A stretch of DNA of 20,000 nt from an uncultured virus (IMG/VR IMGVR_UViG_3300019458_000025) (lineage: Duplodnaviria > Heunggongvirae > Uroviricota > Caudoviricetes), in IMG/VR virus record IMGVR_UViG_3300019458_000025; one strand, 5' to 3'. A program made the position numbers and the translations under genes. The notes beneath the pieces are model-generated. The model had not been told where the DNA came from and did no database searches. It worked only from the letters and a program-made list of their open reading frames with translations. Within the stretch, counting starts at the first letter, position 1. Every line of letters starts with the position of its first letter. This document shows positions 5,161-20,000 of the stretch, one piece after another.

Positions 5161-5303
5161 CGGTGCCTTCTGGGGAGCCGGGGAACTTCCCCCCGAATCC
5201 CCCACCACAGGGGCATTTGTCCTCGGACCCCTCCGGGGCGGTCAACCCCCGTACTCGTCCGATAAGCCGCTACACTAATCACGGCACTCCCCAAAAGGCA
5301 CCG
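5161..5303 (-). ncRNA. Putative structured non-coding RNA / cis-regulatory element of unknown family
   Basis: 17-bp terminal inverted repeat (5161-5177/5287-5303; its single mismatch is G-U on minus) enclosing helices TCGGAC/GTCCGA (5223-5228/5257-5262), GGGG/CCCC and GCCG/CGGC; no convincing ORF. Confidence 0.5.
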
Positions 5304-5320
5304 ACTGGTCATTCGGTGCC
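5293..5320 (-). terminator. Possible intrinsic terminator, mutually exclusive with the 17-bp stem
   Basis: GGCACCGA-8nt-TCGGTGCC followed by TTTT on minus, immediately after a TAA. Confidence 0.45.
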
Positions 5321-5321
5321 A

Positions 5322-5405
5322 TTATGGAGCAATCTTGTCCTGTTCCCTGAGCCACTTCTTGGCTAAGATCTTCTCAGTTTCCAAGCCATAGGCCACTTTC
5401 TTCAC
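5322..5405 (-). CDS. 27-aa micro-ORF / possible leader peptide
   Basis: GGAGAGG SD, GTG; MKKVAYGLETEKILAKKWLREQDKIAP. Confidence 0.45.
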   Translation of the reverse strand: MKKVAYGLETEKILAKKWLREQDKIAP

Positions 5406-5417
5406 ATCCCTCTCCGT

Positions 5418-5819
5418 TTAGAGCGCCTTCCGAAGGGCGACGCCCTTGGTCTTGAGCGCGGCCTTGCAGATGATCCCGGGGGTCATCCACCGGACCGCCT
5501 TCGAGAGAACGACGGTCCGGGAGACCACGCAGAGCTTGGTGAGGAATCGCATGAAGACGGCCTCCGATTCTCGGGCGAGCCGTTCCCAGACGGTCCAGGC
5601 CGCCGAGATCTCGCTGCTGAACCGAGGGCATTGCGCCCAGGCTTCCTCGGAAGAGGCGTGCCATCCCCATCCGAAAAAGCCGGTTGCGCGCCCGATCGGG
5701 CGCCCATGAGGGCCGACCAATTGGTACTTCCGCGGATACTTCGGGTTGGCCGAGGCTTTCCGGACGACCTTGATGCCCATGATCTTCTCCGCGACCAGAC
5801 GGTCAAGCGTCTTCTTCAT
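5418..5819 (-). CDS. Phage ABA-sandwich domain (BC1872-like) protein
   Basis: LDRLVAEKIMG...PRFSSEISAAWTVWERL...TPGIICKAAL is the characteristic family pattern; ATGA overlap. Confidence 0.8.
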   Translation of the reverse strand: MKKTLDRLVAEKIMGIKVVRKASANPKYPRKYQLVGPHGRPIGRATGFFGWGWHASSEEAWAQCPRFSSEISAAWTVWERLARESEAVFMRFLTKLCVVSRTVVLSKAVRWMTPGIICKAALKTKGVALRKAL

Positions 5820-6442
5820 GCGTTCTTCTCCGCTTTCTCCGGCTTGTCGCTCTTGAAAAGGAGCGCGGGCGTCGTCGCCATCTTCACGAGGTCGCGGTCC
5901 AGGTTCGCGGTGGAAAGGATCTCCGTGAGCCGCTCCTTGATTTTGACCAGCGTCTCCTTCAGGCTCTGATCGAGCGCCCGAAGGGCGCGCCAGCGCTCCG
6001 CCGTATACGGGATCGTCCGGTGCGTGATCTTTGGAGAGTCGTACGCGCTCCGAAGCTCCCCAGGATTCCCCTCCATGATGTCGGCGGTCTCCTTGAAATC
6101 GTGGGACCTGCTGCCGCGCTCGGAAACCCCGCGAACGTCCCAGTACCGCCAAAAGACCCTCCGGTTGACGACCGCATGGAAGGCCCGGTAGTAGTCCAAC
6201 TCGAAGTTGTAGGGCTCCGTCTCGATCACGATCATGGGCTGCCACTCGACCTTGAGTTGGCCCCGCACGAACATGTCGGCCTGGTTCATGAGTTCGCGCG
6301 CCGTGTCCCCCTCGAAGACGGTCCCGTCCACTTCCACGCGGAAGATGTAGGTCCGCGTGTCCATCTTGAGGACGGCGGGACGGCCGTCGATCGACCATTC
6401 GGCGATGGTCTTTCCGCGCCCGCTACGTCTGAATTTACCCAT
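5816..6442 (-). CDS. Hypothetical protein
   Basis: 208 aa, GC3-rich coding pattern, C-terminal coiled coil. Confidence 0.8.
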   Translation of the reverse strand: MGKFRRSGRGKTIAEWSIDGRPAVLKMDTRTYIFRVEVDGTVFEGDTARELMNQADMFVRGQLKVEWQPMIVIETEPYNFELDYYRAFHAVVNRRVFWRYWDVRGVSERGSRSHDFKETADIMEGNPGELRSAYDSPKITHRTIPYTAERWRALRALDQSLKETLVKIKERLTEILSTANLDRDLVKMATTPALLFKSDKPEKAEKNA

Positions 6443-6620
6443 GGGATTCCGGCTTCTTTCCTTGCCTGGAGAGGAGCCTCATGTAGTCGTCCGGCGAGAG
6501 CCCGTGGCTGAGCGGCACGCCGTTCACGGGCGTCTGCTCGGGGCAAAGTTCACGGTGGACGTTCGAGTCGGGGATCTCCTTCCCGCAGTGCCTGCACCGG
6601 ATCGGCTCCTCCGCGTTCAC
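6435..6620 (-). CDS. Small C2HC Zn-finger protein
   Basis: GTGA overlap; CRHCG...H...C. Confidence 0.65.
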   Translation of the reverse strand: MNAEEPIRCRHCGKEIPDSNVHRELCPEQTPVNGVPLSHGLSPDDYMRLLSRQGKKPESHG

Positions 6621-6874
6621 GGGTTCTCGTCCTCGAACTCGGGACCGTAGAAGTCGAGCGCATCCTCGCCCTTCTCCGTGAGGCGAAGCACCGGGCGATC
6701 GGGATCGGCCTCGACGCATTCGCGGGCGATGAGATACGCAACCTCGAACCGGTCCCGGTCGAAGCGCTGGAAGCCCTTGGCGACCCGGCGAAGGACCATG
6801 CGCGCCGGAGCATCCAGCGGATCGGCCAGCCAGTGGCCGATGTTGCCGCCGCTATAGACGTGCTTACGGGGCAC
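6617..6874 (-). CDS. Small winged-helix-like protein
   Basis: 85 aa, AAGGAGG SD, C-terminal LRLTEKG wing motif. Confidence 0.7.
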   Translation of the reverse strand: MPRKHVYSGGNIGHWLADPLDAPARMVLRRVAKGFQRFDRDRFEVAYLIARECVEADPDRPVLRLTEKGEDALDFYGPEFEDENP

Positions 6875-7196
6875 TTTTAGCCTCCTTGAGGTCGGCCGCG
6901 AGCGTCCGGATGCGCTCGATGTCCTTCGTATCGACGCTGACGAAATCGCGCGCTTCCTTCTCGACGAGGACGTAGAAGCAGGTCGTCCGCTTGCCCACGG
7001 TCACGCGGCGCCGGTCGCCCCTGGAGAGGCGCGTCCGGCCGCCGAACGTCCGGATCTCCCCGCCGATCCCGCCGAAGAGGGGCGACCGGCTCGTCGGAAT
7101 CCGGACGGTCTCCGTCCGGGTCTGACCGTCCATCTGCCAGCCCATGGAAAGCAGAAGTTCGATCGCGGCCTTCACCGCGGCCTCCGTCTTGGTCAT
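6864..7196 (-). CDS. Hypothetical protein
   Basis: 110 aa from MTKTEAA; ATGA overlap with upstream gene. Confidence 0.75.
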   Translation of the reverse strand: MTKTEAAVKAAIELLLSMGWQMDGQTRTETVRIPTSRSPLFGGIGGEIRTFGGRTRLSRGDRRRVTVGKRTTCFYVLVEKEARDFVSVDTKDIERIRTLAADLKEAKSAP

Positions 7197-8218
7197 GCCT
7201 CGCGCTCCACGAGAACGCGATCGACGACGTCGGGCCCCGCCCAATGGCCTTCCCACCAGAAGACCTTCGTGAGCGCGGTGTCGGGTTCGAGGACGGTCCC
7301 GCAACGGCAGGTCTCGCGCTGGAGGAACCTCCGGATGCCCCGCCGCACGCCGCAGATCGTGCAGTAGGAGAGGATCTTGAAGTGGCCCCGGACGAAGTAC
7401 GGGTTCTGCCGCTGGACGCCGGACTCGTTCCGGCGGAGCGCAAGCGCGATCCTTTTCGAGACGTCCTTGATGACGAGCGCCTCGAACTCGCGCCCGTACT
7501 CGGGGCGCCACCAGTACCGATCCTTCGGCCGCTCCATCCGCGGAGCCGGACGGCGCTCGTAGGAGACGTTCGAGCTATTGAGGAACATGAGAAAGGAAAG
7601 CGCCTCCAGGCGCCACCGGAGCCCCGCGCTCCGGCCGCCGCGGTTGATCGGACCCTGCTCGGAAAGGACGGCGTCCTCGGTCAAGGACGCCAGCTTGAAG
7701 GACGGCCCTTCGACCGCCATCGAGTCGAGGAGCATGTGCCACTTCCCGTTGTCGGGAAGCGTCCGGTAGTACCAGACCATCGTGAGCGTCCGCGTGGGCT
7801 CCCCGGCCCGTCCGCTCTTCATGGCCTCGATCGAATGCCAGAACGGCATCGTGCTTTCCATGAGATGGAGGCCGTACCGCTTCTCGGTGTCCTTGATCTC
7901 GTCGAAGGTGATGGCCGCGCCCATCTCGATGAAGAGGTTCGCGATCGGCATCCGGATCATCTGGCCCGTGACAAAGGTCGGCCGCGCCTGGTGGATGCGC
8001 GTCCCAAGATCGCCGGGCGCGTAGAGGACGCGCGCGTCCGCGAGGTTCCCGAGCGCGATCCGCATCTTGCTCTCGTTGGCCTCCTGGTGCTTGGCCTTGC
8101 GGAGCGCGTTCTCCTCGTCCGTGTAGCCCGCGGTCGCGAGCCCTGGGATGACGCCGACCAGCTTGCCATCGGCCGCGTGCCGCAGGATGTCGTAGTACCG
8201 GGTCGGAAACGGGTGCAT
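7193..8218 (-). CDS. Conserved phage protein (VRGHF...WWxGHWxG family) with Zn-ribbon insert
   Basis: 341 aa from MHPFPTRYY (TGATG overlap); C-terminal PYFVRGHFK..CTICG..CRCG..KVFWWEGHWAG. Confidence 0.8.
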   Translation of the reverse strand: MHPFPTRYYDILRHAADGKLVGVIPGLATAGYTDEENALRKAKHQEANESKMRIALGNLADARVLYAPGDLGTRIHQARPTFVTGQMIRMPIANLFIEMGAAITFDEIKDTEKRYGLHLMESTMPFWHSIEAMKSGRAGEPTRTLTMVWYYRTLPDNGKWHMLLDSMAVEGPSFKLASLTEDAVLSEQGPINRGGRSAGLRWRLEALSFLMFLNSSNVSYERRPAPRMERPKDRYWWRPEYGREFEALVIKDVSKRIALALRRNESGVQRQNPYFVRGHFKILSYCTICGVRRGIRRFLQRETCRCGTVLEPDTALTKVFWWEGHWAGPDVVDRVLVEREA

Positions 8219-8373
8219 CAACTCACCGCCTTTTCGTCGCCGTCCCTGGGGCGGCGCTTTCCGCAGGCGCATTCGCGGGTCTTGACGCCGTCGATGGTCC
8301 GGCGGATCATCATCCCGCAGCGCGGGCAGTAGAGGATCTCCTGGGACTTCCGGCGGCTGTCGGGCTTCCTCAT
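8218..8373 (-). CDS. 51-aa Zn-ribbon protein, probably near-leaderless
   Basis: MRKPDSRRKSQEILYCPRCGMMIRRTIDGVKTRECACGKRRPRDGDEKAVS; ATG 8 nt after the -10 box of P2; stop overlaps next ATG; not in ORF track. Confidence 0.7.
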   Translation of the reverse strand: MRKPDSRRKSQEILYCPRCGMMIRRTIDGVKTRECACGKRRPRDGDEKAVS

Positions 8374-8381
8374 CTTCACAG

Positions 8382-8410
8382 ATGTTAACGGATGTGGACG
8401 CCCGTGTCAA
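8382..8410 (-). promoter_or_regulatory. Sigma70-type promoter P2
   Basis: TTGACA-17nt-TAACAT, intergenic. Confidence 0.8.
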
Positions 8411-8413
8411 GCG

Positions 8414-8435
8414 AAAAACGCGGTGTCGTTCCGCA
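8414..8435 (-). terminator. Weak putative intrinsic terminator upstream of P2
   Basis: (T)GCGG-7nt-CCGC(G) followed by TTTTT on minus. Confidence 0.35.
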
Positions 8436-8463
8436 GCTTTCCGGTGGGACCGTTATGGAGCGC

Positions 8464-8769
8464 CTACCCGAGATCCGTATTGACCGGGATGACGCGGACG
8501 ACCTCAGCCATGCGGCCGTGTTCCTTCTTCCAGGCTGAAAGGCATGGGCGACCGCAGGAAAACCAGGTCGCCCTGCCGTCCGCCCAGAGGACGCCGAGGC
8601 GTGCCAGGCGCCTCGGATGGCGCGGGCACCGCCTTCCGTGGCCGCGCTCCGCGAGCATCTGATCGACGCGCGCGATGACTGCGGGGCTGGGCCCGCGCTT
8701 CCGTCGAACCATGGTCTTAGCCCCCTCGTTGACGACGCGGACGACCGCGGCGCACTTTTCGCAGGTCAC
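8464..8769 (-). CDS. Hypothetical Cys-containing protein
   Basis: GTGA overlap; MTCEKC...CPRH...CGRPC. Confidence 0.65.
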   Translation of the reverse strand: MTCEKCAAVVRVVNEGAKTMVRRKRGPSPAVIARVDQMLAERGHGRRCPRHPRRLARLGVLWADGRATWFSCGRPCLSAWKKEHGRMAEVVRVIPVNTDLG

Positions 8770-9125
8770 GGGAAGCCCTTCTTTTCGATGACGGTGAGGC
8801 CCTCGGCTTCGAACTTCTGGACGAACTTCTCGAAGGTGTCGCACTCGCTGAAGTCCCTGAGCGTGAAGACCATCCCGGGTATCGGGACGGTCTTCATCAT
8901 CTGTTCGGCCTCGGCCACGACCTCAGCGTCGCTCTTCGCCTCCTTCTTGAACGATTGCTTCCCACGATCGTTGATGTCGTACACGAGTGCCATCGTGAAC
9001 GTGCCATCCTCGTTCCGCCTCGACATAAGCCGGACGTTGATGCCGCGGACGGTCTTCGAGGTCCAGAACTTCCAATAGCGCTGCTTCGGATATTCCGCGG
9101 ACAGAACGCAGTCGGTCGGCTCCAT
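8766..9125 (-). CDS. Hypothetical protein
   Basis: 119 aa, strong GC3 coding pattern. Confidence 0.75.
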   Translation of the reverse strand: MEPTDCVLSAEYPKQRYWKFWTSKTVRGINVRLMSRRNEDGTFTMALVYDINDRGKQSFKKEAKSDAEVVAEAEQMMKTVPIPGMVFTLRDFSECDTFEKFVQKFEAEGLTVIEKKGFP

Positions 9126-9128
9126 CGG

Positions 9129-9638
9129 CTATGAGGTCCCCTGGGCTGCGGCAGGCGTCCCCGCAGCCTCCTTCTTCTTCAAGTCCAGGCAGCACTTGAG
9201 GAGGATCTTGTAGCCCGGAAACTCGCCCCGGACCACGAGATGGCGGCGCCCGCACTTCCGGCAGATCCGGTGGTTCTCTCCGCAGACCTCGCAGGGGTAG
9301 CCGCGGGCGCTCTTCCGGCTTTTCTGGCTCAGGCAGTAATGGCATCCCCGCGGTCCGAGGTTCGGGCGATTTCCCCCGTAGACCATCCCCGGCGCAGGCT
9401 TCCATCGGGAGCGCCCGATGTAATCGTGCGCCTCCTTGGTGAGCGCGTAGTCGAAGACGTAGTCGTCCTCATGGCCCTGAGCGCTGATCAAGTCGAGGTT
9501 GATCAGCCAGTCGATCGTCCTCTTGTTGATCGTGATGTGCTCCCGGTCGGTGAAGAAGCAAGAGCCGTTTCTACGGCGAAGCGTCTTCCCGTCCTTCATG
9601 AGCCAGACGACGAGCCGCTGGGACTTCGTGATGTTCAT
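9129..9638 (-). CDS. wHTH-like plus C-terminal Zn-finger protein
   Basis: 169 aa from MNITKSQ; TIDWLINLDLI...YALT then CHYC, CEVC, CRKC. Confidence 0.75.
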   Translation of the reverse strand: MNITKSQRLVVWLMKDGKTLRRRNGSCFFTDREHITINKRTIDWLINLDLISAQGHEDDYVFDYALTKEAHDYIGRSRWKPAPGMVYGGNRPNLGPRGCHYCLSQKSRKSARGYPCEVCGENHRICRKCGRRHLVVRGEFPGYKILLKCCLDLKKKEAAGTPAAAQGTS

Positions 9639-9640
9639 TG

Positions 9641-9730
9641 TCAATGCCTCAATTCGCAACACTTCTCGCAAAGGCCGCAGGAGTTGAGTGGTGCCGATTG
9701 ACCACACATCGGGCAATTCTCAATTTTCAC
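9641..9730 (-). CDS. 29-aa Cys-rich microprotein
   Basis: GTGA overlap; MKIENCPMCGQSAPLNSCGLCEKCCELRH; not in ORF track. Confidence 0.6.
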   Translation of the reverse strand: MKIENCPMCGQSAPLNSCGLCEKCCELRH

Positions 9731-9885
9731 GATTTGCGCCCCCTCTTCTGCTTGCCGCTCGCCTTTTCTGCCGCTTCAAAGCCAGCTTCAAAAGCAGCCC
9801 AAATCTCGGTGAGGCATCGCCCGGAAAGCCGCACGCTCTCCACGTACATCGTCGCCAAGTAGCGGCGCCTGGTCGTCGTCTTCAC
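9727..9885 (-). CDS. Small hypothetical protein
   Basis: GTGA overlap at 9882-9885; WAAFEAGFEAA motif common in small phage proteins. Confidence 0.55.
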   Translation of the reverse strand: MKTTTRRRYLATMYVESVRLSGRCLTEIWAAFEAGFEAAEKASGKQKRGRKS

Positions 9886-10613
9886 GATTGATGATCCGGA
9901 GATGTCTCTACGATGCGCTTCTTCCACAACGCGCCTTCCACTTCATAGAGGGGGCGTTGTTCAAATGGATTCCCATCCCCAACAACGTCCCACATTCGCG
10001 ACCATTTAAGGCCGATCATGACTGATTCGTACGCCATCTGCTCGCGGCTCTTGGGAGGGGACTTGACGAGCTTTACCGCAACTGCGGCCGATTCCGGATC
10101 GGCCTGGCCCCGAATCCAAAAGTGCTCATGGCCAGCCATAATTTCATCCCATAGAGGGCCGTTTATCCATTCCATCTTCAACCTCACCTTACCAGCACCG
10201 GCTTCCAGTTGTTTAGCATGGAATCGTGGGACACCATCGGCGTCGCTCCGATCGCGATCTGTCGCAAGGAGAACAACCTCCGCGTATCGAAGGGGTGGTG
10301 CCTCGGCTCGGAGTTTTTGGGCAACGTAGCTGCGGTAGGCGGCGATCGAGTCGAGGACGATCTTTTCCGCCTCCGTGGAAAGCCGCGCACGGTCACCAGG
10401 TCGTAACGGCGGGGGAACCGGGGATGACACTCGTTGGAATATCGAATTTGGAGGGCTCTGAAGGAGATCTATGAGTCCCGGGCCGACCGTGAATACCCAG
10501 GATTCCTTCCACCAGACGAAGCGCCATGCCGCTTCATCCACCAGCCCACGCATCTCGATCGGCGGATCATCCTCAAAGTAGAAGATCTCGACACCCTCAG
10601 CGACCTTGGTCAT
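9882..10613 (-). CDS. Hypothetical protein
   Basis: 243 aa, GGAGG SD. Confidence 0.75.
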   Translation of the reverse strand: MTKVAEGVEIFYFEDDPPIEMRGLVDEAAWRFVWWKESWVFTVGPGLIDLLQSPPNSIFQRVSSPVPPPLRPGDRARLSTEAEKIVLDSIAAYRSYVAQKLRAEAPPLRYAEVVLLATDRDRSDADGVPRFHAKQLEAGAGKVRLKMEWINGPLWDEIMAGHEHFWIRGQADPESAAVAVKLVKSPPKSREQMAYESVMIGLKWSRMWDVVGDGNPFEQRPLYEVEGALWKKRIVETSPDHQS

Positions 10614-10640
10614 CGCCAGTTCCTCCCGCCGAAACCGGAT

Positions 10641-10967
10641 CTAGCGGTGCTGCCCGAAGCAGTCCGAGCAGTAGACCGGGCGGTCTCCCCGGGGCTTGAA
10701 CGGAACGCGCGCTTCCTTCCCGCAGTCGGCGCAGACCGCGGTGTGGTATTCGCGCGGACCGGTCCGGTCGCGCGCCGGACCCCGATCGCCGCCGCCCTGC
10801 CGATCGCCGCCTCCGCGCTGCTTCTTCGCCTCGCGGCAGGGCTTGCAGCGCTTGGGTTCGTTGCTGAAGCCGAGCTTCGCGAAATGCTCCTGTTCCCCGG
10901 CCGTGAACGTGAACGCCGCCTGGCAATCGACGCACTGCAACTCCTTGTCCGTGTACGCTTCGGGCAT
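10641..10967 (-). CDS. Zinc-ribbon (zf-trcl-like) plus CxxC-x17-CxxC domain protein
   Basis: DKELQCVDC..FTFTAGEQ..F...GF.NEPKRC..CR and AVCADCG....VPFKP...RPVYCSDCF; GGAGG SD. Confidence 0.9.
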   Translation of the reverse strand: MPEAYTDKELQCVDCQAAFTFTAGEQEHFAKLGFSNEPKRCKPCREAKKQRGGGDRQGGGDRGPARDRTGPREYHTAVCADCGKEARVPFKPRGDRPVYCSDCFGQHR

Positions 10968-11043
10968 GGCCCTTCCTCCGTTAGATGCCGCTGGGAACTC
11001 CGGAAACGTCCGAGGCCCCTTGAGGCATGATTAAACTATTTCG

Positions 11044-11304
11044 TCACCGCCAATGCCACGCGATATTGCCCATCCGGTTGAGCTTCTCGCGCATCCACTT
11101 CTCGATCAGCTTCCAGAACGGACCCCGACGCCACCACGGCGCTTGTAGATGCCGGACGTATTCCCGGATGAAGTCTCCAGCGGGTGCCTCATGTCGCTCC
11201 ATCTTGATCGTGATCCTGGGCTTTCCTTCGACGTTCACGAGCACCGCGGGGACGTCCTCGATCGCCCCGGTCGCCCAACGAGTCTCCCATTCGGTGATGG
11301 TCAT
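11044..11304 (-). CDS. Hypothetical protein
   Basis: 86 aa, GGAGG SD, TGATG overlap. Confidence 0.65.
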   Translation of the reverse strand: MTITEWETRWATGAIEDVPAVLVNVEGKPRITIKMERHEAPAGDFIREYVRHLQAPWWRRGPFWKLIEKWMREKLNRMGNIAWHWR

Positions 11305-12035
11305 CACGCCTCCTCGGCTTTCGGTGCATGGAGCGTACCGACGTAGACTGCGATGACACCGAAACCGCCGAATGGCTCCGGATCGCCCGGCGCCCCGACT
11401 TCGAGGAAGAAGCATTCGGTCGCCCGGATCTTCCTGGGCGCGGTCCAGGACACGCACGGAAGCTTCCGTCCGTTGACGAGCGCGAGAAGATCCTTCGCGC
11501 GGTCCCGGTCATAGGGGTGCGCCGGTTCAGGAAGCGGGATGTGCCGGACGTCCTCCGGGGCGGCGAGCTTCGTGTGGACGCTCTGGCCGAAGTGGTCCAC
11601 GACGCCGCCGAGCGGATACCAGCCATCCCGTTCGAGAGGCGTCGCGATGCGCCTGAGCCTTTCGTCGTCCTCCGGATGCTCGCAGTAGATCCGGATCTCC
11701 TCCCGCTCGAAGTGAAGGGGATAGGTCAACTGGGAGTCCATGGTCATGTTCGTCCAGGTCCAGTCCCGGTCGTGGTTAGGTCCCTTCCGGGGCGCCTTCC
11801 CCTGGCGTTCGAGGTTCCAGATCGAGGCCGTGAAGAACTCGGTGAGGCACGATTCGACCTTGGCGCGAGACCAGAGGAGCCCAGGGGTGTAGGCTTCGAG
11901 ATCCGGCTCCCTGTAGCGATAGGTCAGTTCGTTGACGACCTCAAGAATTCTCATCCGTTCGAGCGCGTCCATGTCCATGAGCCGGAGCGCCATGTTCCGC
12001 GCATCCCCCTGGAGGTCTTCCATTTTCATGGGCAT
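11304..12035 (-). CDS. Hypothetical protein
   Basis: 243 aa from MPMKMEDL with GAGGAGG SD. Confidence 0.8.
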   Translation of the reverse strand: MPMKMEDLQGDARNMALRLMDMDALERMRILEVVNELTYRYREPDLEAYTPGLLWSRAKVESCLTEFFTASIWNLERQGKAPRKGPNHDRDWTWTNMTMDSQLTYPLHFEREEIRIYCEHPEDDERLRRIATPLERDGWYPLGGVVDHFGQSVHTKLAAPEDVRHIPLPEPAHPYDRDRAKDLLALVNGRKLPCVSWTAPRKIRATECFFLEVGAPGDPEPFGGFGVIAVYVGTLHAPKAEEA

Positions 12036-12049
12036 TGGACCCTCCTCTC

Positions 12050-12394
12050 TTAGCTCGTGACCTGGATCGCCGACGTGACGAGCATTTCGTGGACCGCGGC
12101 GGCGTGGCAGTCGTGCAGATAGGCGCCGACGTGCGCGCGGTGGCAGTAGCGACCGGTCGCGTCCCGGACCAGTTCCTGGCCCATCTCGCAGCGCTTGCAG
12201 ATCCTCGGGATGAGGTAGTGACGCTCGTGGTCGCGCACGTTCTGGTTGAGATGGAGGAGCGCCTGTCCGACGCGGCATCGGAGGCTTGCCGTGGGTTCGC
12301 CGCGTTCGCAGGGACCCCCGTTGACCCCGGCCGTGCAGAGGTCGTCGTGGAATCTGCGGATGATCTCGAACCAGTCAGTTCCTTGTTCGGGCAC
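12050..12394 (-). CDS. His/Cys-rich hypothetical protein
   Basis: 114 aa, GTG start with GAGGGG SD. Confidence 0.7.
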   Translation of the reverse strand: MPEQGTDWFEIIRRFHDDLCTAGVNGGPCERGEPTASLRCRVGQALLHLNQNVRDHERHYLIPRICKRCEMGQELVRDATGRYCHRAHVGAYLHDCHAAAVHEMLVTSAIQVTS

Positions 12395-12418
12395 CGAATC
12401 CCCCTCGTCAGGCTCTCC

Positions 12419-12637
12419 TCAACGGCGGCTGTACATCAACGCGACAAGAACGGACGGCACCGTCATGATGAAGCCCATTGCGGCCCACTTGATCCGGACC
12501 GGGCTCTCGGCGAACCAGGACAAGAACCTGAAGAGCACGAGGAGGAGTACCAGGAGGATCGGGACTCCGATCGAGCACCACACCCCGATCGTGCCGCTCC
12601 GGAGTTCCCGGTCGTTCACGCCTGCCCGGCCATTCAT
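12419..12637 (-). CDS. Small membrane protein (2 TM)
   Basis: ATGA overlap; two hydrophobic segments and a basic C-terminus. Confidence 0.7.
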   Translation of the reverse strand: MNGRAGVNDRELRSGTIGVWCSIGVPILLVLLLVLFRFLSWFAESPVRIKWAAMGFIMTVPSVLVALMYSRR

Positions 12638-13377
12638 GCCGCGCTCCCGCGAAGCCCTCGGACCTGAAGCACCCAGTCGTTCAGGAACCCGCGATCCCCC
12701 TCCGCCGGGATCGGCCAGGGTTTCATGCCGTCGATCTCGTTGATGAGCGAGAGCGTCGTCTCGACGATCCGCTCCTTGGACCACTCGCTCCGCCGGATCT
12801 GCATGAGGATGTCGCGCTCGCCGCCTTCCTTCCAGACGAGAGGCGGTTGGCCCTTGGCGATCCGGCGCGCGTCCCAGCCCAGCCGGATCATGTGGTAGGC
12901 CCACTTCTCGTTGTATTCGCCGCCCTTCGTGTGGAGACCTCCCTTTCCCCCGTGGGCCGAGAACTTCTTCAGTTGGCCCTGCATGTACCCGAGGTACTGC
13001 TTGACCGATTCGGCTGTCAGGAAGCGCTGGCGCTCCTTCCGGAGGGGCTCCCATTTCGGGTCCGCCCAATAGAGCCGGTCGGTGAAGAGCATCTCGATGA
13101 TGCCCGGATTGCCCTTGAGGAGGAGGTTCGCGAACTTCCCGACCTCGTGGACCTGGTAGTCCGGCTTCTGGGCTTCCGGGTTGTCGATCGTGTCCGGGGG
13201 CGGCGAGAGCCCGAGGAGGTCGTGGTTGAAGGCCACGTAGACGGCCACGTAGTCGATGTCGCTCGTCTCGATCTGGGTGTTGTGGCTCCAGGAGCCCCAG
13301 ATCTTGGAGAAGATCGTCCAACCGCGGAGCATCGGGGCCTTTTCGAGCCAGCCGGTGGGGTTCAGATCCTTAGACAT
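12634..13377 (-). CDS. Pol-beta-superfamily nucleotidyltransferase, RlaP/YcgL/NrdC.11-like
   Basis: WGSWSHNT...SDIDY motif, HEVGKF..LLLKGNP.IIEMLF, YLGY, K.AYH.IRL, IRR.E signature pattern. Confidence 0.9.
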   Translation of the reverse strand: MSKDLNPTGWLEKAPMLRGWTIFSKIWGSWSHNTQIETSDIDYVAVYVAFNHDLLGLSPPPDTIDNPEAQKPDYQVHEVGKFANLLLKGNPGIIEMLFTDRLYWADPKWEPLRKERQRFLTAESVKQYLGYMQGQLKKFSAHGGKGGLHTKGGEYNEKWAYHMIRLGWDARRIAKGQPPLVWKEGGERDILMQIRRSEWSKERIVETTLSLINEIDGMKPWPIPAEGDRGFLNDWVLQVRGLRGSAA

Positions 13378-13918
13378 TCGCCTTCCAGAATCCATCCAGT
13401 TCGAGTTGCCCGGATTCCACGAGGTCGAACTCCATGAGTTCCCTATAGTTGAATTTGTTGCGATACTCCAAGCATTCCTTGAGCGTTACCATGGGGCCGC
13501 CGAATCCGAGGAGTTCGCTTCCCCACTTGAGCAGAACGTATTTTGGGACACGCTCCTGTAGTTTTACGAAGCGAGCGCCAAGATCGGTCATTCTCCAGAA
13601 GCCGCTAGTTTTCTTCTCCGGCATCACGTTGATTCTTTCTCTCACGATGCCCCAGTACCTCAACTGAGCGAAGTCCCCTCCGGTTGTCGGAGCGCCAAGA
13701 TCGCGGACATGGAAGAATCCAATGCTTGGTTTCTGCCTGTGACACCTATAGAGGTTGATGAGGTAACGCGCCATAGCGCAAGACAGTTTGCGCTTATAGA
13801 TCTTGAGAAGCCTCCCGCAGGATTCGCATCGGCTCGCGTCGAACTTACCTGGCTCTTTGTACCACGGTCTGCTGTTGAACTGCCCGTCCGGAGGGATGAT
13901 TATTTCAGATTGGAGCAC
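13370..13918 (-). CDS. Conserved phage protein (CxxCG..K.YKRKL...GDFA.LRYWG...SG.WR.T..G), wHTH-like
   Basis: 182 aa; first gene after P3; visibly more AT-rich codons. Confidence 0.8.
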   Translation of the reverse strand: MLQSEIIIPPDGQFNSRPWYKEPGKFDASRCESCGRLLKIYKRKLSCAMARYLINLYRCHRQKPSIGFFHVRDLGAPTTGGDFAQLRYWGIVRERINVMPEKKTSGFWRMTDLGARFVKLQERVPKYVLLKWGSELLGFGGPMVTLKECLEYRNKFNYRELMEFDLVESGQLELDGFWKANV

Positions 13919-13964
13919 ATGTGTCCCTTGTAAAGGCGCCTCTGCTTAGTCCCTCAGTAAACAC

Positions 13965-13993
13965 ATGTTAACAGGTGTAAGTAGAAAAAGCAA
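13965..13993 (-). promoter_or_regulatory. Sigma70-type promoter P3
   Basis: TTGCTT-17nt-TAACAT with TG extension, same GTTAACAT core, AT-rich intergenic region. Confidence 0.7.
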
Positions 13994-14000
13994 GCGCGCT

Positions 14001-14249
14001 CTATTCCTCGGACGTCCGTAGCTCCGCGATGTCCTCATAGATGAACACCTGGCCGCAGACCACGCACATGTCCATTTCCTCAAGTTCGTAGGTTTCCGGG
14101 TTCCTCGCGACGCGCAAGAGTCCTTCCGGACAGGCCGGGCATACGGACTTGTACATCGAGTCGGACCAGCGTTTGAGATCTGCGTGTCGGACGCGGATGG
14201 GAGGCTTGCCAAGGTTCTCCGGCACCGGCCCGTTCACGGGCATGGTCAT
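14001..14249 (-). CDS. Zn-ribbon hypothetical protein
   Basis: 82 aa; CPAC...CVVCG. Confidence 0.75.
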   Translation of the reverse strand: MTMPVNGPVPENLGKPPIRVRHADLKRWSDSMYKSVCPACPEGLLRVARNPETYELEEMDMCVVCGQVFIYEDIAELRTSEE

Positions 14250-14261
14250 GGACGTTTTCCT

Positions 14262-14606
14262 TTAGCCTAACCTGATCTCGAACCCGGCGTTCCTCAGCCG
14301 TTCCACCTGGGCCGGGATGTCGGCCGCGCCCGAGAAGTCCACGGCTTCCCATTCCATCGGGACCGGAAGCGCCGCCGAGCTTCTCCTCATGTCGTCGATC
14401 AGGGCTTCGATTTCATCCTCCCGCATGCCGCGCCTGCGCCGGAGCCCCTGCATGCTCACGAAGGTGTCCCTGACGCCGTTATCGCGGAGGACGACGAAAA
14501 TCGCCGCCACCGCATTCGGATCGCCCGCCTTCCGCTTGAGGACCCACGCGGAGACGATGGCGTCCCCCTCGACGAAGTCCATGGCGGCGTATTCGTCCGG
14601 GTTCAC
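14262..14606 (-). CDS. Hypothetical protein
   Basis: 114 aa, GTG abutting upstream TAG. Confidence 0.7.
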   Translation of the reverse strand: MNPDEYAAMDFVEGDAIVSAWVLKRKAGDPNAVAAIFVVLRDNGVRDTFVSMQGLRRRRGMREDEIEALIDDMRRSSAALPVPMEWEAVDFSGAADIPAQVERLRNAGFEIRLG

Positions 14607-15458
14607 CTAGTTCTTCCCGAGGTTCCCCCGGGTCCTCTCTCGATCCTTCATGAGCTTCCGCGCTTTCGAATCGACCCCGGCGCAGACCCGGAAGAGTTCC
14701 GTGACCTTGAGGCGGACGACGGCGTGCTGAAACCAATCCCGAAGGCGTCGGGCGGTCCCGACCAGGTCCGGATTGCTTTCGGCCTGTGACCGGAGCCGCT
14801 CGACCGGTGCCCGGCAATCCGTCCCGTAGGGCGCCACGAGTGCGGTGATCGTCTCGGCGTCCCGTTTCGCGCGGCGCCAGAGTTCGGTCTCGTCGCATTC
14901 CCTGAAGAAGTCCATCGCTTCGGCACCCCAGGCGCAATCGTGCGCCCACACCTGGTCGGCGCCAATTTCGTCGAGCCTGACGATCTTGGAAGGGGAATGC
15001 CCGTTCACGAAGCGGCTCGTGTCCACGTCGTTCCCGAAGCAGACATTTCCGAAGAAGCAATCCGTCAGGCCGTATCCGGGCAGCGTGATCTCGATCCTGA
15101 GGCTGTTCTTTCCCCCGTTCACGGCGAACGTGAAATAGGCGTGGCTTTCCTCCGGCCTGTGATGGTGCCTGAGGACCAGCTTCGGCCCCCACCCCAAGCG
15201 GCAACTGACCGAGGAAAGGCTTGGATTCCCAGGGCTGAAATCAGAAAGCGTGATCTCGCTCCGATAGCCGTTCACTGCCTCTTCGAGGATGACGGCCTGC
15301 TGGACCTCGTCCGGCTCTCCTGACGGACGCTCGTTGACCTGCCGGGTGCAGTTGCAGAGGTGGCCTTCCTTCTCGACATGATGCGGGCTGTGTTCCGTGA
15401 AACGGAGCGTGCCTTCTCGCGTACGGAAGAAGCTGTACCGGACGACGTGAATGGTCAC
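14607..15458 (-). CDS. Hypothetical protein
   Basis: 283 aa, GGAGG SD, GTGA overlap. Confidence 0.75.
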   Translation of the reverse strand: MTIHVVRYSFFRTREGTLRFTEHSPHHVEKEGHLCNCTRQVNERPSGEPDEVQQAVILEEAVNGYRSEITLSDFSPGNPSLSSVSCRLGWGPKLVLRHHHRPEESHAYFTFAVNGGKNSLRIEITLPGYGLTDCFFGNVCFGNDVDTSRFVNGHSPSKIVRLDEIGADQVWAHDCAWGAEAMDFFRECDETELWRRAKRDAETITALVAPYGTDCRAPVERLRSQAESNPDLVGTARRLRDWFQHAVVRLKVTELFRVCAGVDSKARKLMKDRERTRGNLGKN

Positions 15459-15782
15459 GGCGAGATCCTCCCAAGTTCTATCAGTCGTTTCTTGGCGGCC
15501 ATGCAGCGCTTACGGTCGATTTCGATTCCGATTGCCGGTTTTGTTGGGGAATTCGCATTCGCGGAACCAGCTTTCAGCCAGCGTGTCCAGATCTCCGAAG
15601 AGGTAGACCGATCCTTTCGGCCCCATGCTCGCGCTAATGCGCCGGAATGCCGACTTGATTCGGTCGCTTTCCAAGTCGTAGGGCGGATCGGTAAGAACCA
15701 AATCGAAGCGGGATCGGATTGGCCACTTGAGAAAGTCGCCTTGATATAACCTGACGCTGCCGCACCTGATAACCAGTTCCAT
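15455..15782 (-). pseudogene. N6/N4 DNA methyltransferase remnant (internal deletion plus frameshift)
   Basis: N-terminus LYQGD..FDLVLTDPPY; C-terminus KPAIGIEIDRKRCMAAKKRL...SP* lies in another frame from ~15540; the central part with the FxGxG SAM motif is absent. Confidence 0.8.
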
Positions 15783-15788
15783 TCTCGA

Positions 15789-16100
15789 TTATGCCGCGGC
15801 CTCGCAGCCGCAGTTACACATGTGGTTCCCGTCCGAATCCTTCCATTCGCCGTGACAGACCCAGTGAAGCTTCGCGTGGCAAGGCCCGCAGGTCGTGGCC
15901 ATGGGTTCCTGGTCGAACCAAGTCACGACCGCCCTTCCTTTTAAGCCCTTGAGCGCGCCTTCCGGGCGAGTCGCCGAGCTATCGCGGACGCCGTTCACCA
16001 GGGTCTTGTGAGGCCCCTCGTGCCTGTCCAGGAGGATGCATCCGGACCGCTCCTGGGACCCGGAGATCTCGATCGAGGCTCCGCAGAAAAGCAGGCTCAT
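15789..16100 (-). CDS. Cys/His-rich hypothetical protein
   Basis: 103 aa; C...C.L...H.G.H and CGPC..C..CNC. Confidence 0.7.
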   Translation of the reverse strand: MSLLFCGASIEISGSQERSGCILLDRHEGPHKTLVNGVRDSSATRPEGALKGLKGRAVVTWFDQEPMATTCGPCHAKLHWVCHGEWKDSDGNHMCNCGCEAAA

Positions 16101-16103
16101 GTC

Positions 16104-16331
16104 CTAGATCCTCCTTTCAACTTCCGGAGGTGGTGCGGCTCTCCGGACGTGAAGGACGTCCTTCTCGTCATAGCTCGCCTCGATCAGGGTCCCGCAGCCC
16201 CGGCTGCACGCGGCACGGGTTACGATCCCGTGCATGACGCTCACCTCGATCAGTTTCACGCGGCCGGGTTCGCGCTCGCAGCCCGGACACCGGACGACGA
16301 CGGATCGGATCGGAAGATCGTTCTCGGCCAC
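16104..16331 (-). CDS. Zn-ribbon hypothetical protein
   Basis: GTG at 16331; CPGC...CSRGC. Confidence 0.6.
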   Translation of the reverse strand: MAENDLPIRSVVVRCPGCEREPGRVKLIEVSVMHGIVTRAACSRGCGTLIEASYDEKDVLHVRRAAPPPEVERRI

Positions 16332-16359
16332 GGCCCCTTCGAGCCCTCTTCGTGCAAAC

Positions 16360-17232
16360 CTACTTCTTTCCGCATTCCGGGCAGCGCTTTGCATCCTCCA
16401 GGAATTCCATCGACTCGTAGGATTCGCGTCGTTTGCAGGACGGACATACACGGCCCGCTTCAACCTCCAAGACCTGCGACTTCGGTTGCTCTTGCAGGCA
16501 AGCCGGAGACGCCACGTACCGGAGGCCGAGGAGCGCGACCTTGATCGAGACCGGTCCGGAAAGCTCGACCGCCTCCTTCCGGACGTCAACGCCGAAGATG
16601 TCCGCGTAGCCCAACCGCACCGCGCTCTTGTGAAGAAGGCCGACCGAGTAGAGCATCCAGGACCCGGACGATGCGAACGCCTGGAGGGATTTGAAGACGT
16701 CGCTCACGAGCCCTTCCCAGTTCTCGCTCTTCCGTGCGAGGGCCTTCATGGGACCGCCATCGGGCTCGTCGATCGCGATCGGGAGGAGGCCGTCCGTCAG
16801 GAGAAGGGTCGGCACCATGACGGAAGCCGGGAATTCCTTGGTAAATGCCGGGTGATCCGGGTCTCCGAGAGAGAACTTGAAGTGGAGCGCCTCCCTGAGC
16901 GCCCGAACGTCCGATCCGGGCACGTCGCCCTCGAATGCGAGCAAGATCCTGACCACGTCGAAGCGGTCGGCTACCTCAAGGGTTCGGACGTTCCTGTTGT
17001 TCGTGTGGATTCCGTAGATCTTCTTCGTGCCGTCCGGGAACTTCGACGGGCTGTCGAAGGCGATCGTCTCCATTGTACCGGATGCCGGAATCTTCACGGT
17101 GTCGTAGATCTGATCGACGAGCGGAATGAGGCAGCGCGGGAGGTGAAGCTCGTGCTCGTTGCAGACGAGCGCATCCGGGAAAATGGTGTTCGGGTCGAGC
17201 TTGGGCAGGCGCGACGGGTCGATTCTAGGCAT
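16360..17232 (-). CDS. Hypothetical beta-rich protein with C-terminal Zn ribbon (possible jelly-roll fold)
   Basis: 290 aa, GAGGAG SD; IYDT..F..P..K...TN..L...F.V..I pattern; CPSC...CPECG tail. Confidence 0.8.
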   Translation of the reverse strand: MPRIDPSRLPKLDPNTIFPDALVCNEHELHLPRCLIPLVDQIYDTVKIPASGTMETIAFDSPSKFPDGTKKIYGIHTNNRNVRTLEVADRFDVVRILLAFEGDVPGSDVRALREALHFKFSLGDPDHPAFTKEFPASVMVPTLLLTDGLLPIAIDEPDGGPMKALARKSENWEGLVSDVFKSLQAFASSGSWMLYSVGLLHKSAVRLGYADIFGVDVRKEAVELSGPVSIKVALLGLRYVASPACLQEQPKSQVLEVEAGRVCPSCKRRESYESMEFLEDAKRCPECGKK

Positions 17233-17247
17233 TGGTTCTCCTCCTCT

Positions 17248-17409
17248 CTAGATCTTCTTGAACCGGAAACCCACGAACCCGTCGCATCGCCAGAGCGCGA
17301 AGGGCAAGAACGGCCATCGGATAAGGTACGGAAAGAACTTCCTGTTCATGTAATAGGACAGCGCTCGCTTCGCCGACGCGATGGAAGCGCGCTTCTTCAT
17401 GTCCATCAT
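17248..17409 (-). CDS. Small basic/hydrophobic protein
   Basis: 53 aa, ATGA overlap. Confidence 0.5.
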   Translation of the reverse strand: MMDMKKRASIASAKRALSYYMNRKFFPYLIRWPFLPFALWRCDGFVGFRFKKI

Positions 17410-17516
17410 CGCCGAATCCACAGGAGAACCCGGCACAGGGCGCAACGCCACCAATTGCCCTGCTTCCGGGCCTCGATAAGCTCCTTCCGATCGTGACGGC
17501 AGCGCGTCCAGTCCAT
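17406..17516 (-). CDS. 36-aa microprotein (CxH...CxxC)
   Basis: MDWTRCRHDRKELIEARKQGNWWRCALCRVLLWIRR. Confidence 0.5.
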   Translation of the reverse strand: MDWTRCRHDRKELIEARKQGNWWRCALCRVLLWIRR

Positions 17517-17526
17517 CCTTGGTCCC

Positions 17527-17688
17527 TTATGCAGGCTCGACTTCCTGGACGGTTGCTTTCGTCCAGAACTCGAACTTCCCGTATCCGAGCGGCCGGATGA
17601 GCGAGTAGGTGCCGTCCGCGTTCGCACACCAGACGGTCCAGAGGACGCCGCGCACCTTCACTTCGTCTCCCCGGTTGAATAGGTTCAT
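17527..17688 (-). CDS. 53-aa SH3-like small protein
   Basis: GGAGG SD; MNLFNRGDEVKVRGVLWTVWCANADGTYSLIRPLGYGKFEFWTKATVQEVEPA; not in ORF track. Confidence 0.7.
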   Translation of the reverse strand: MNLFNRGDEVKVRGVLWTVWCANADGTYSLIRPLGYGKFEFWTKATVQEVEPA

Positions 17689-17725
17689 GGAAGTCCTCCG
17701 ATAATCTGCCTCTTCCTGCCCATTG

Positions 17726-18202
17726 CTAGTCTACCGAAGCCTTGGAGTTCGGCCATCGGTTCGCGACATAGCGAGCCGCATCCTCTTTGTGCGTCCGATC
17801 TCCGCGAAGCTTGATGCCGTCTCCCGTTGGCCGAGCCACGTCAATCCAGGTCCAGTGCCGAAAATCAGGATTCCAGGTTTGGATGAAGTCGGCCGGTATC
17901 GTCCGCTCCACGAAGTACTCCTTGAATCCTTTCCGGCTCGTTCGCGCGTCCGGCACTACCTTTCGAGCGATACGAAGGAGGAGCGGCGCCCCCGATTCGC
18001 CGAACTCGTGGAGGTTCTGTTCGATGAGTGCCATCCCGTAGGCTCTCGCTTGAGCGAGCGAAGAAGCCAGGAAGACCTTGCCCACGCTCCGCTCGCGGTG
18101 CTCCGGCCAGTGCGCCTCTTGAAGATCTTGAAGCGGTACCAGACCGTGCTCCTGGATGGCATCCAGGAGGTTCTCGTACGTCGCGTGGTAGAAGTAGCTC
18201 AC
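17726..18202 (-). CDS. ADP-ribosyltransferase-fold protein (H-Y-E-like; Tpt1/KptA C-domain-like)
   Basis: YFYHAT...I.EHGL.P, KVFLA....A..Y, LLLRI, EY....IP..FI; GTG start at 18202 (alternative 18256). Confidence 0.7.
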   Translation of the reverse strand: MSYFYHATYENLLDAIQEHGLVPLQDLQEAHWPEHRERSVGKVFLASSLAQARAYGMALIEQNLHEFGESGAPLLLRIARKVVPDARTSRKGFKEYFVERTIPADFIQTWNPDFRHWTWIDVARPTGDGIKLRGDRTHKEDAARYVANRWPNSKASVD

Positions 18203-18290
18203 GATTGCCAGCCCCCGCTTGTCGATGGGCGGCTTCGGGAGACATTCACAGGGCACTTCGGGGCTCTCACCATGCCCTTTTTTCGCTGAT

Positions 18291-18542
18291 TCATCGGGAG
18301 GCTCCCGCGCTGTCGAGCCTGGTTTCGGCGCCCTTCACCGCTACGGCTATCTTCCGGTTGGCGGCGCGCAGTTCGTAACCTGTCCTCCTGAACGGGCTCT
18401 CGATCACGTCGCAGTGAGCGACCCGGTGCCCGAGGCCCCATCCGTGGAGATGCCACTTTCTACAGAAGGGACACCATGCTTTAAGGCCATGGCCGTCCTT
18501 TCGGAGATAGGCCAATAGCACCGGGAATCGCTGTTTCGGCAT
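18291..18542 (-). CDS. Conserved phage Zn-binding protein
   Basis: WCPFCRKWHLHG..GHRVAHC...SPF...GY; GGAG SD. Confidence 0.75.
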   Translation of the reverse strand: MPKQRFPVLLAYLRKDGHGLKAWCPFCRKWHLHGWGLGHRVAHCDVIESPFRRTGYELRAANRKIAVAVKGAETRLDSAGASR

Positions 18543-18558
18543 AGCCGCTCCGTTTCCG

Positions 18559-19326
18559 TTACTTCCTCTTCACCCCGAGAGTCCTCTCGTAGTCCTCGAA
18601 CCTCATCTTCGCGATCGCCTTCCGGTCGGCGGTGCGGACGACGACGCCTTCAGCGCGACCTTGTCCTTCGTCCAAATGGACCCTGGAAATAGAGAACTGG
18701 GTCAGCCACTGCAAGGTGTCCTTGAGGGAAACGGGCGGCGGCTCGAATCCGGCAATCGGCTTCGTGAACCACGCGGGAACGCGCTTGACCGCCTGAAGCG
18801 GCAGTATAAGTTCCTGGACTCCAGACATGGGTGGTAGAAAGTCCTGACCGCCATGGTCACGCCAACTGGCGATTTGCTCGATCGGCTGCTCCAGGATGGA
18901 GAGGGGAACGCGGGCGATATCGAAGAGGCGCGCTCCCTTCACGCCCTTCTCCGTGTACTGCTTGGCGCCCGGGAGTCCAGTGCCGTAGACCTCGAAGAAC
19001 CAAACGAGCGCGGCATCGCCGGGCGCCTCCGGCAGCGTCTCCGCGATCGGCTCAAGGACGGTCTTGATGTCATAAGTGGTGTTCCAGACGAGGTCGCCTT
19101 GAGCAAACAGGAACTCCTCGCGGCTCCCGATCAGGTACCTTCGAGGGCCGTTCGGAAGAACGACGATCCGGCCGTTCGTGCCGTCCACTTTTTCGGTGAT
19201 CTGAAGCGCTTCACCGGCCGGGAACGGCACGCGGACGATGTCGTTTAGTCGTCCGCGGTCCCCCATCTCGTGGTAGGTCTCGATGCCCGGGTACTTGGTC
19301 GCGCTATTTAGCTTCGCCAGGTCCAT
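18559..19326 (-). CDS. RNA ligase (Rnl2-like nucleotidyltransferase domain)
   Basis: 255 aa from MDLAKLNSATKYP; motif I TEKVDGTN, Ia GSR, III FEVYG, IIIa FDI, IV EGVVVR, V AKMR; GAGGAG SD. Confidence 0.88.
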   Translation of the reverse strand: MDLAKLNSATKYPGIETYHEMGDRGRLNDIVRVPFPAGEALQITEKVDGTNGRIVVLPNGPRRYLIGSREEFLFAQGDLVWNTTYDIKTVLEPIAETLPEAPGDAALVWFFEVYGTGLPGAKQYTEKGVKGARLFDIARVPLSILEQPIEQIASWRDHGGQDFLPPMSGVQELILPLQAVKRVPAWFTKPIAGFEPPPVSLKDTLQWLTQFSISRVHLDEGQGRAEGVVVRTADRKAIAKMRFEDYERTLGVKRK

Positions 19327-19348
19327 AGTTCTCCTCGTAGTTCTCCTC
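19326..19348 (-). repeat. Tandem duplication of the ligase ribosome-binding site
   Basis: GAGGAGAACTA occurs twice on minus (19338-19348, 19326-19336), period 12. Confidence 0.85.
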
Positions 19349-19382
19349 TGCCAACCGCGTCGTTGTGCTCCTCGATCTTCGT

Positions 19383-19972
19383 GTCGCAGGATCAAGGCCC
19401 CTGCGATGGCATCGCCGAAAGACGATCCGCCAAGCTGACATGGTGCCATCGTCGCTGGAACTAGGCCCCAGCGCTGGCTTTGCTCCTTTCGACGTCGAAC
19501 TTCCTCCTCGCTCTGATGATGTCGCGAGCACGGTACCCCCGCGCTGGCATTGCTCCGACCTAGAAGCAGCTTAAACCCCTGAGTAAGATGATGTCGCAGG
19601 CTTAAAACCCCTGCGCCGGTATTGCTACAAGAGGACTTGGCCGCATTCACGGACTTGGAGCTTCGTCGCGGGCTCTAAGCCCCCGCGCTGGCATTGCTCC
19701 GGCTGATGTTGTACCGAGCCGCGTAGAACGACGTGGTCGCAGGCTCTAAACCCCCGCGCCGGTATTGCCACCAAGCTGACCAAGGCGAGCATTGTCGCGA
19801 GCACGAAGCCCCCGCGCTGGCATTGCTCGTGACCCAGGACTTCTTCTTGTCGTTCCTCCAGTGGAGATCACGGTGGAGTCGCGAGCACGAAGCCCCCGCG
19901 CTGGCATTGCTCCGGCTCGAAAGGAGGTCACTTGACGTCGCAGGCTCTCAACCCCTGCGCCGGTATTGACAC
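19383..19972 (-). CRISPR. CRISPR-like array with heterogeneous 36-bp repeats (type V-like hairpin/pseudoknot), possibly truncated by the window end
   Basis: Nine repeats starting on + at 19383, 19451, 19521, 19593, 19665, 19736, 19794, 19878 and 19937; consensus GTCGC(A/G/T)RG-N6-RCCCC(T/C/A)GCGCYGGYATTGCTMC; unique spacers of 32, 34, 36, 36, 35, 22, 48 and 23 nt. Confidence 0.88.
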
Positions 19973-20000
19973 CACAGGGACAATTTCCTCGTGCGGACGG

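Follow-up and report, generated by a model that had tools for sequence, protein, structure and literature searches.

The window, meaning the whole 20,000-nt stretch of the uncultured virus record IMGVR_UViG_3300019458_000025 that was analyzed, has a G+C content of 62%, and almost every credible gene in it is encoded on the minus strand. Close to its end, positions 19383-19972 contain nine direct repeats, each 36 nt long. The repeats, numbered R1 to R9 in plus order, their spacers, and the neighboring genes discussed below are as follows, each repeat being given with its score against the covariance model of type V-M repeats described further on.

3807-4250, minus: candidate Acb2/Tad1 hairpin-domain protein (sub-threshold, 24.1 bits versus a cut-off of 27; phrog_2428, E 6.6e-25)
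4326-4607, minus: candidate Lar-like restriction-alleviation protein (sub-threshold in Pfam; phrog_599, E 2.3e-08)
10641-10967, minus: 108-aa protein with two treble-clef zinc-finger domains (PF13451 and PF23477, both E ~4e-20)
12634-13395, minus: RlaP-family nucleotidyltransferase (Pfam, E 2.5e-19; phrog_388, E 7.7e-34)
18559-19329, minus: RNA ligase family gene (Pfam PF09414, E 1.6e-08; phrog_548), the downstream neighbor, outside the CRISPR unit
19330-19382, minus: trailer, 53 nt between R1 and the RNA ligase start codon
19383-19418, minus: R1, last in the RNA sense (32.4 bits)
19451-19486, minus: R2, diverged, with a U-A stem pair (42.1 bits)
19521-19556, minus: R3, class B, with G-U in the stem and in a pseudoknot pair (35.7 bits)
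19593-19628, minus: R4, class A (30.8 bits)
19665-19700, minus: R5, class B 5′ half with a class A-like loop (46.7 bits)
19736-19771, minus: R6, class A, with a stem G-U (30.9 bits)
19794-19829, minus: R7, class B, 35/36 identical to R8 (45.8 bits)
19878-19913, minus: R8, class B (48.1 bits)
19937-19972, minus: R9, class A, with a GUGUCA 5′ end and an A-U pseudoknot pair (30.3 bits)
19419-19450, 19487-19520, 19557-19592, 19629-19664, 19701-19735, 19772-19793, 19830-19877, and 19914-19936, minus: eight spacers
19973-20000, minus: partial spacer upstream of R9, 28 nt without a new repeat, then the window end

The repeats start 68, 70, 72, 72, 71, 58, 84, and 59 nt apart, and the spacers measure, in plus order, 32, 34, 36, 36, 35, 22, 48, and 23 nt, so that five of the eight are ordinary in length and three (22, 48, and 23 nt) are atypical. 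Pairwise identity among the repeats ranges from 22 to 35 of 36 positions. Two repeat classes are interleaved, class A comprising R9, R6, and R4 and class B comprising R8, R7, R5, and R3; two of these seven, R5 and R6, are mosaics. Divergence is greatest in R2 and R1, above all in R1, which is identical to the others at 22-26 of 36 positions and whose fold is intact. Read on the minus strand, all nine repeats end in GCGAC, columns 1-8 at the 5′ end are the most variable, and the invariant columns are those that form the scaffold. R9 is the copy closest to the window end and the most upstream one in the RNA sense, and at the usual spacing of 68-72 nt the next repeat would be expected to start at about 20005-20009. 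The window end cuts the array, and the visible part is its distal, trailer-side portion. Two of the spacers (19487-19520 and 19557-19592) open with ATCATC right after the repeat in the RNA sense, and the 9-mer GTCAGCTTG is common to spacers 19419-19450 and 19772-19793; such sharing may be due to chance or may have been left by duplication of units. Searches of the phage collection, the plasmid collection, and the fetched Cas12m loci found no target for any spacer (best E 0.2).

The window resembles the accessory part of a phage-like element. Several further genes match phage orthologous groups, and few have known families. The RlaP-family nucleotidyltransferase and the RNA ligase, which share a strand and are separated by 5 kb, may constitute a phage RNA-repair pair directed against host tRNA or RNA cleavage. 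The two candidate counter-defense genes at 3807-4250 and 4326-4607 adjoin each other. Between the array and the ligase, just upstream of the ligase start, lies a tandem duplication of the decamer AGTTCTCCTC with 2 nt between the copies (19330-19351), and on the minus strand this pair presents two Shine-Dalgarno-like GAGGAG blocks. Promoter and terminator scans returned 0 sites each, and the trailer contains no terminator-like site. A 363-aa ORF with a GTG start (18559-19650, minus), which runs through R1-R4, and an open frame inside the array (19746-20000, minus) were rejected as repeat artifacts; the most likely start codon of the RNA ligase is the ATG at 19329. No close relative of the RNA ligase was found in viral contigs, no near match of the window region in the phage or plasmid collections, and no homologue of the window proteins in the flanks of any fetched Cas12m locus. 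Because there are no flank homologues, this phage has no visible relatives, and synteny is silent on the far side of the array.

The initial annotation had read each repeat as a hairpin (positions 3-8 paired with 18-23, numbered on the plus strand) plus a pseudoknot between loop positions 15-17 and positions 26-28, both kept by covariation, and had proposed transcription from the minus strand and a Cas12m-like architecture. The nine copies were aligned on each strand, and the 6-bp hairpin and the 3-bp loop-to-5′ pseudoknot were counted as 81 pair cells. On the minus strand all 81 cells are standard (54/54 in the stem and 27/27 in the pseudoknot), versus 76 of 81 on the plus strand, where all five failures are A-C. 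In the covariation test on this alignment, none of 500 column shuffles matched the observed percentage paired or the covariation score in either orientation, and pairing was only 31-57% once the partners were slid by 1-3 columns. The individual substitutions are also borne out: stem pair 6:20 occurs as A-T, T-A, and G-C, as had been listed; pseudoknot pair 15:28 is A-T in R4, R6, and R9 and G-C in R1, R2, R5, R7, and R8; and the imperfect pairs (7:19 in R3, R7, and R8; 6:20 in R6; 15:28 in R3) are without exception A-C on the plus strand and G-U on the minus strand. Since R3, R7, and R8 are nearly copies of one another, the five wobble cells count as about three independent events.

On the minus strand, one stem pair takes four forms (G-C, A-U, U-A, and G-U). 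Within the window only one pseudoknot pair varies (G-C, A-U, and G-U), and it is linked to the class-specific position 25 (column 12), so that the pseudoknot covariation of the window, taken alone, could instead reflect two repeat lineages. An optional fourth pseudoknot pair (columns 8:23) is found, among the window repeats, in R3 only. The folding energies of single repeats on the minus strand were no better than those of shuffles (z −1.95 to +0.11), and the consensus hairpin is present in only six of the nine minus-strand minimum-energy folds; the minus-strand fold is the more stable one in eight of the nine repeats. The strong support for the predicted fold comes from related arrays.

Related arrays were sought with a motif scan of genome contigs for two neighboring repeats with the shared ends, which returned 17 loci. 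Three of them carry window-type repeats, in each case directly downstream of a cas12m gene and on the same strand. They belong to Gordonia otitidis (L016), whose Cas12m protein is that of PDB 8pm4 (GoCas12m); to a Brocadiaceae metagenome-assembled genome (MAG) (L012), whose Cas12m protein matches PDB 23vw (E 2e-71); and to a Gemmatimonadota MAG (L002). The remaining 14 loci were dropped as unrelated or coding repeats without a Cas12m homologue. An alignment of the three Cas12m proteins was then used to search viral contigs, and this protein-first search revealed 12 contigs that encode Cas12m relatives. In 11 of these, an array lies within about 30-240 nt downstream of cas12m on the same strand, and the twelfth contig ends 112 nt after the gene. 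Searches of viral contigs with the exact repeat and with a degenerate repeat pattern gave no match, and the sole match to the repeat in metagenome contigs (L001) was rejected as a chance match inside a coding region.

A family alignment was built from 32 distinct repeats of 10 cas12m-adjacent arrays, including that of GoCas12m, with two 37-nt variants, the repeat of L028 and the 11th repeat of L012, left out. All of its pair cells (288/288) are standard, compensatory changes occur in eight of the nine pairs, the three of the pseudoknot among them, and each of the 11 non-Watson-Crick cells is a G-U when read in the cas12m sense. The fourth pseudoknot pair forms in 22 of the 32 family repeats versus one repeat of the window. 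A covariance model of this alignment, which represents the hairpin only, was run unfiltered over the whole window. It matched all nine window repeats at full length on the minus strand, with scores of 30.3-48.1 bits and E values of 5e-5 to 9e-9, which are rough owing to a shortened calibration. The next best match in the window scored 11.8 bits, no plus-strand match within the array exceeded 6.4 bits, and the model detected no solitary repeat copies elsewhere in the window. On these matches, the window repeats are assigned to the type V-M family, with the minus strand as their sense strand so far as can be told from sequence. The proposed Cas12m-like architecture and minus-strand reading are thus upheld by a model made from cas12m-adjacent arrays elsewhere, and the TtCas12m2 scaffold follows the same plan.

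The 11-repeat array of the Brocadiaceae MAG (L012, 2843-3586) changes stepwise with distance from cas12m. Its pseudoknot helix is swapped between GCC/GGC, CCC/GGG, GCG/CGC, and GGG/CCC, and compensatory swaps occur in its stem as well; it is a clearer natural covariation series than that of the window itself. A 122-kb viral contig (L056) carries a divergent Cas12/TnpB-like frame (643-1893; 531 aa open) that was missed by tblastn and matches the Cas12u1 profile with an E value of 4.5e-8. About 19 near-identical repeats follow this frame (2056-3392), and the closing pair of their stem is an A-A mismatch.

The effector gene was sought in the window and in related contigs. A tblastn search of the 20-kb window with two Cas12m proteins was negative, and PADLOC detected no cas genes among 40 window ORFs, its two positive controls hitting Cas12u1 (E 4.6e-216 and 1.8e-90). 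Positions 1-19329, which cover the downstream side only, were compared with every repeat in both orientations, and no anti-repeat was seen, the matches being at most 12 nt long. Every examined locus has cas12m first and the array after it on one strand, an order that in this case would put the gene beyond base 20000. Viral contigs were also scanned repeat first, without bias as to the protein, and 24 stretches in 16 contigs resulted; a cas12m-like gene is present in 14 of the 16, and in the other two the array stands at the first bases of the contig. Public viral collections hold at least two dozen contigs of this kind. One viral contig of 153 kb (CheckV 100% complete; L019/L035/L039/L041/L045/L046/L052/L053/L055/L057) encodes two cas12m genes. 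Arrays also occur on it, in either orientation, in at least four other regions far from both cas12m genes, and about 67 model matches were counted in the four stretches of it that were scanned. Roughly 170 further copies of family repeats came to light beyond those aligned. Because of these distant arrays, adjacency of cas12m and array is likely and not guaranteed. By analogy with the related loci, the cognate cas12m is likely to be encoded somewhere in this genome, and its placement on the minus strand directly beyond base 20000 is probable, if with somewhat less confidence.

Two DNA runs labelled cave metagenome, and no listed RNA run, contain the stretch, and the continuation of the array was examined in their contigs. 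In run X1, the flanking contig of 33,740 nt (depth, 27.7) breaks off within R7, a separate unitig with a depth of 378 consists of the 36-nt R8 unit, and a contig of 7,965 nt (depth, 28.2) ends in an R8-type repeat on the upstream side. As the depth of the R8 unitig is about 14 times that of the flanking contig, it suggests that the array holds about a dozen more identical repeat copies; other genomes in the sample may add to this depth. Judged by contig depth, R8 is probably the canonical unit of the array, and these data fit a window that shows only the worn far end of it.

The locus is, with high confidence, explained as the distal part of a type V-M CRISPR array on a phage-like mobile element. 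The array would be transcribed on the minus strand, the direction of all neighboring genes, and each repeat would provide a Cas12m guide scaffold, with a 6-bp hairpin that ends 2 nt before the spacer and a pseudoknot formed by −28 to −26 with the first loop nucleotides, −17 to −15. By analogy with characterized Cas12m proteins, Cas12m would grip this fold and cleave the precursor within the variable 5′ portion of each repeat, and the 3′ spacer would lead it to bind PAM-flanked DNA and to block transcription or replication. The repeats are probably not renewed by copying and would drift under selection for the fold alone: since V-M loci lack an adaptation module, old units would stay unreplaced and only the scaffold would be selected, which would explain the compensatory changes and the tolerated G-U pairs inside one array. 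Repeats that are uniform beside cas12m and diverged at the far end occur in L012, L019, L020, L021, and L028, in agreement with the initial remark that the most degenerate copies, R1 and R2, stand at the trailer end. Odd spacings (49-65 nt from start to start) and mixed repeats are also found beside cas12m, in L019, L020, L024, and L026.

Other explanations were weighed against a type V-M array with its own effector. The phage may carry V-M repeats without a Cas12m of its own, as an orphan array whose transcripts borrow the Cas12m of a host or plasmid or titrate it as an RNA decoy, much as RNA anti-CRISPRs do. Such an array would agree with the lack of cas12m in the 19 kb downstream, with a neighborhood of candidate anti-defense and RNA-repair genes (Lar-like, weak Acb2/Tad1, RNA ligase, and RlaP), and with heterogeneous repeats, three odd-length spacers, and no spacer target found. 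It is nevertheless considered unlikely, since the window edge falls on the side where cas12m is seen in every other examined locus and since 14 of the 16 viral contigs with such arrays encode a cas12m-like gene, the other two being cut at the array; similar heterogeneity and odd spacing are found right beside cas12m genes, and five of the eight spacers here are ordinary. The same irregularities, namely, identity down to 22/36, spacers of 22, 48, and 23 nt, and the lack of targets found, could instead mark an eroded relic, a V-M array by descent whose visible part is decaying and yields no working guides. Decay is at odds with the state of the fold: with up to 14 differences per repeat pair, 0 of 81 pair cells are broken, a result that no shuffle reached, and the invariant columns are the scaffold columns. 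Intact pairs and invariant scaffold columns indicate continued selection on the RNA fold, and a relic is held to be improbable.

On the opposite strand, the repeats could be taken for a class 1 array of type I or III, processed by Cas6 or Cas5d and leaving a 3′ handle. Read on the plus strand, each repeat starts with GTCGC and ends with ATTG plus four bases, an arrangement reminiscent of type I-C and related repeats. This reading requires five A-C mismatches, and the minus-strand fold is the stabler one in eight of the nine repeats. Moreover, no Rfam CRISPR repeat family was matched at E values of up to 10, the handle positions 33-36 vary among the copies, the V-M model matches the minus strand only, and the window contains no class 1 cas gene. 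The class 1 reading, and with it the plus-strand Cas6-type processing that the initial annotation had named as its counter-hypothesis, is refuted as far as sequence can tell and is given hardly any probability. A lack of structural likeness to type V repeats, the other outcome that would have spoken against that annotation, is likewise contradicted by the V-M matches.

There is a small chance that the V-M array has a role beyond immune memory, for which three forms can be considered. The repeats, which keep the fold yet are non-identical, precede an RNA-repair gene by 53 nt without an intervening terminator, and they could be processed by Cas12m to punctuate or tune the phage’s own long transcript. 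An array without a phage effector could act on the Cas12m of a host or plasmid, either as its decoy or as its parasite. Finally, the two interleaved repeat classes could serve two Cas12m paralogues, which is suggested by the 153-kb viral contig with its two cas12m genes.

Phage-borne V-M loci are already in print, as in the description of myxophage MV-1 (bioRxiv 10.64898/2026.09.14.751636). The present locus adds a well-documented phage-borne example for a CRISPR subtype that is best known from plasmids. The picture of the Cas12m mechanism is unchanged; the fold has already been solved by cryo-electron microscopy. Fold-preserving variation within one natural array suffices to read out the guide-RNA scaffold, and positions that Cas12m needs can be told apart in it from those where change or a G-U pair is tolerated, which is useful for guide engineering of these compact DNA binders.

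The window repeats share the plan of the characterized Cas12m guides. The TtCas12m2 crRNA is described as a 36-nt repeat-derived scaffold with a disordered 5′ end, in which C(−22) to C(−17) pair with G(−8) to G(−3) and the pseudoknot is stacked on the stem (PMC10442227). The scaffold oligonucleotide listed in Supplementary Table 1 of that paper starts with GUGUCA and ends with GAC, and its nucleotides −28 to −25 can pair with −16 to −13. In its minus-strand reading, R9 agrees with this scaffold in its length of 36 nt, in both ends, and in the AC after the stem; its 6-bp stem joins −23 to −18 with −8 to −3, and its second helix joins −28 to −26 with −17 to −15. The loop is 9 nt long in the window and 8 nt long in TtCas12m2, and the pseudoknot helix has 3 bp in the window and 4 bp in TtCas12m2 and in 22 of the 32 family members. 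Because the TtCas12m2 heteroduplex is reported to span only 17 bp (PMC10442227), the spacers of 22 and 23 nt could still act as guides.

V-M repeats are described as conserved, with two predicted stems and no need for a tracrRNA, and Cas12m itself is reported to cut within the repeat (PMC11013384). In the same account, the GoCas12m scaffold is a triplex plus pseudoknot, and the repeat-derived part of the mature guide is about 30 nt long. As in the Tt and Go systems (PDB 8hhl/8hio and 8pm4), the 5′ end is variable in the window repeats; columns 1-8, the variable ones, correspond to the disordered 5′ end in TtCas12m2 and lie outside the mature guide in GoCas12m. The Gordonia otitidis repeat is identical to R8 at 25 of 36 positions, and the repeat of the Gemmatimonadota MAG at 30 of 36. 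V-M loci are described as lacking adaptation genes (bioRxiv 10.64898/2026.09.14.751636; review PMC11656645), and neither an anti-repeat nor adaptation genes were found in the window, which covers the downstream side of its array. Unlike the characterized Cas12m arrays, that of the window has mixed repeats, with two interleaved classes and mosaics.

Among viral loci, the Cas12m locus of myxophage MV-1 is reported as the first in a phage (bioRxiv 10.64898/2026.09.14.751636), and a review notes that V-M systems are “also encoded by some prophages” (PMC11656645). The MV-1 locus, as described in its report, and that of the window are both viral Cas12m-type arrays for which no spacer targets were identified. 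MV-1 has no cas1, cas2, or cas4 nearby, and none was found in the window either, on the downstream side of the array that it covers. By the same description, MV-1 has one consensus repeat and eight spacers beside cas12m, whereas the window has nine non-identical repeats. Unlike in the characterized Cas12m systems, no effector is visible in the window, and the carrier looks like a phage and not a plasmid. Viral solitary repeat units, or RNA anti-CRISPRs (Racr), are CRISPR repeats that phages carry among counter-defense genes. In contrast to Racr, going by their description, the window holds a multi-unit array with mostly normal spacers, and the viral relatives of its repeat family come with their own effector.
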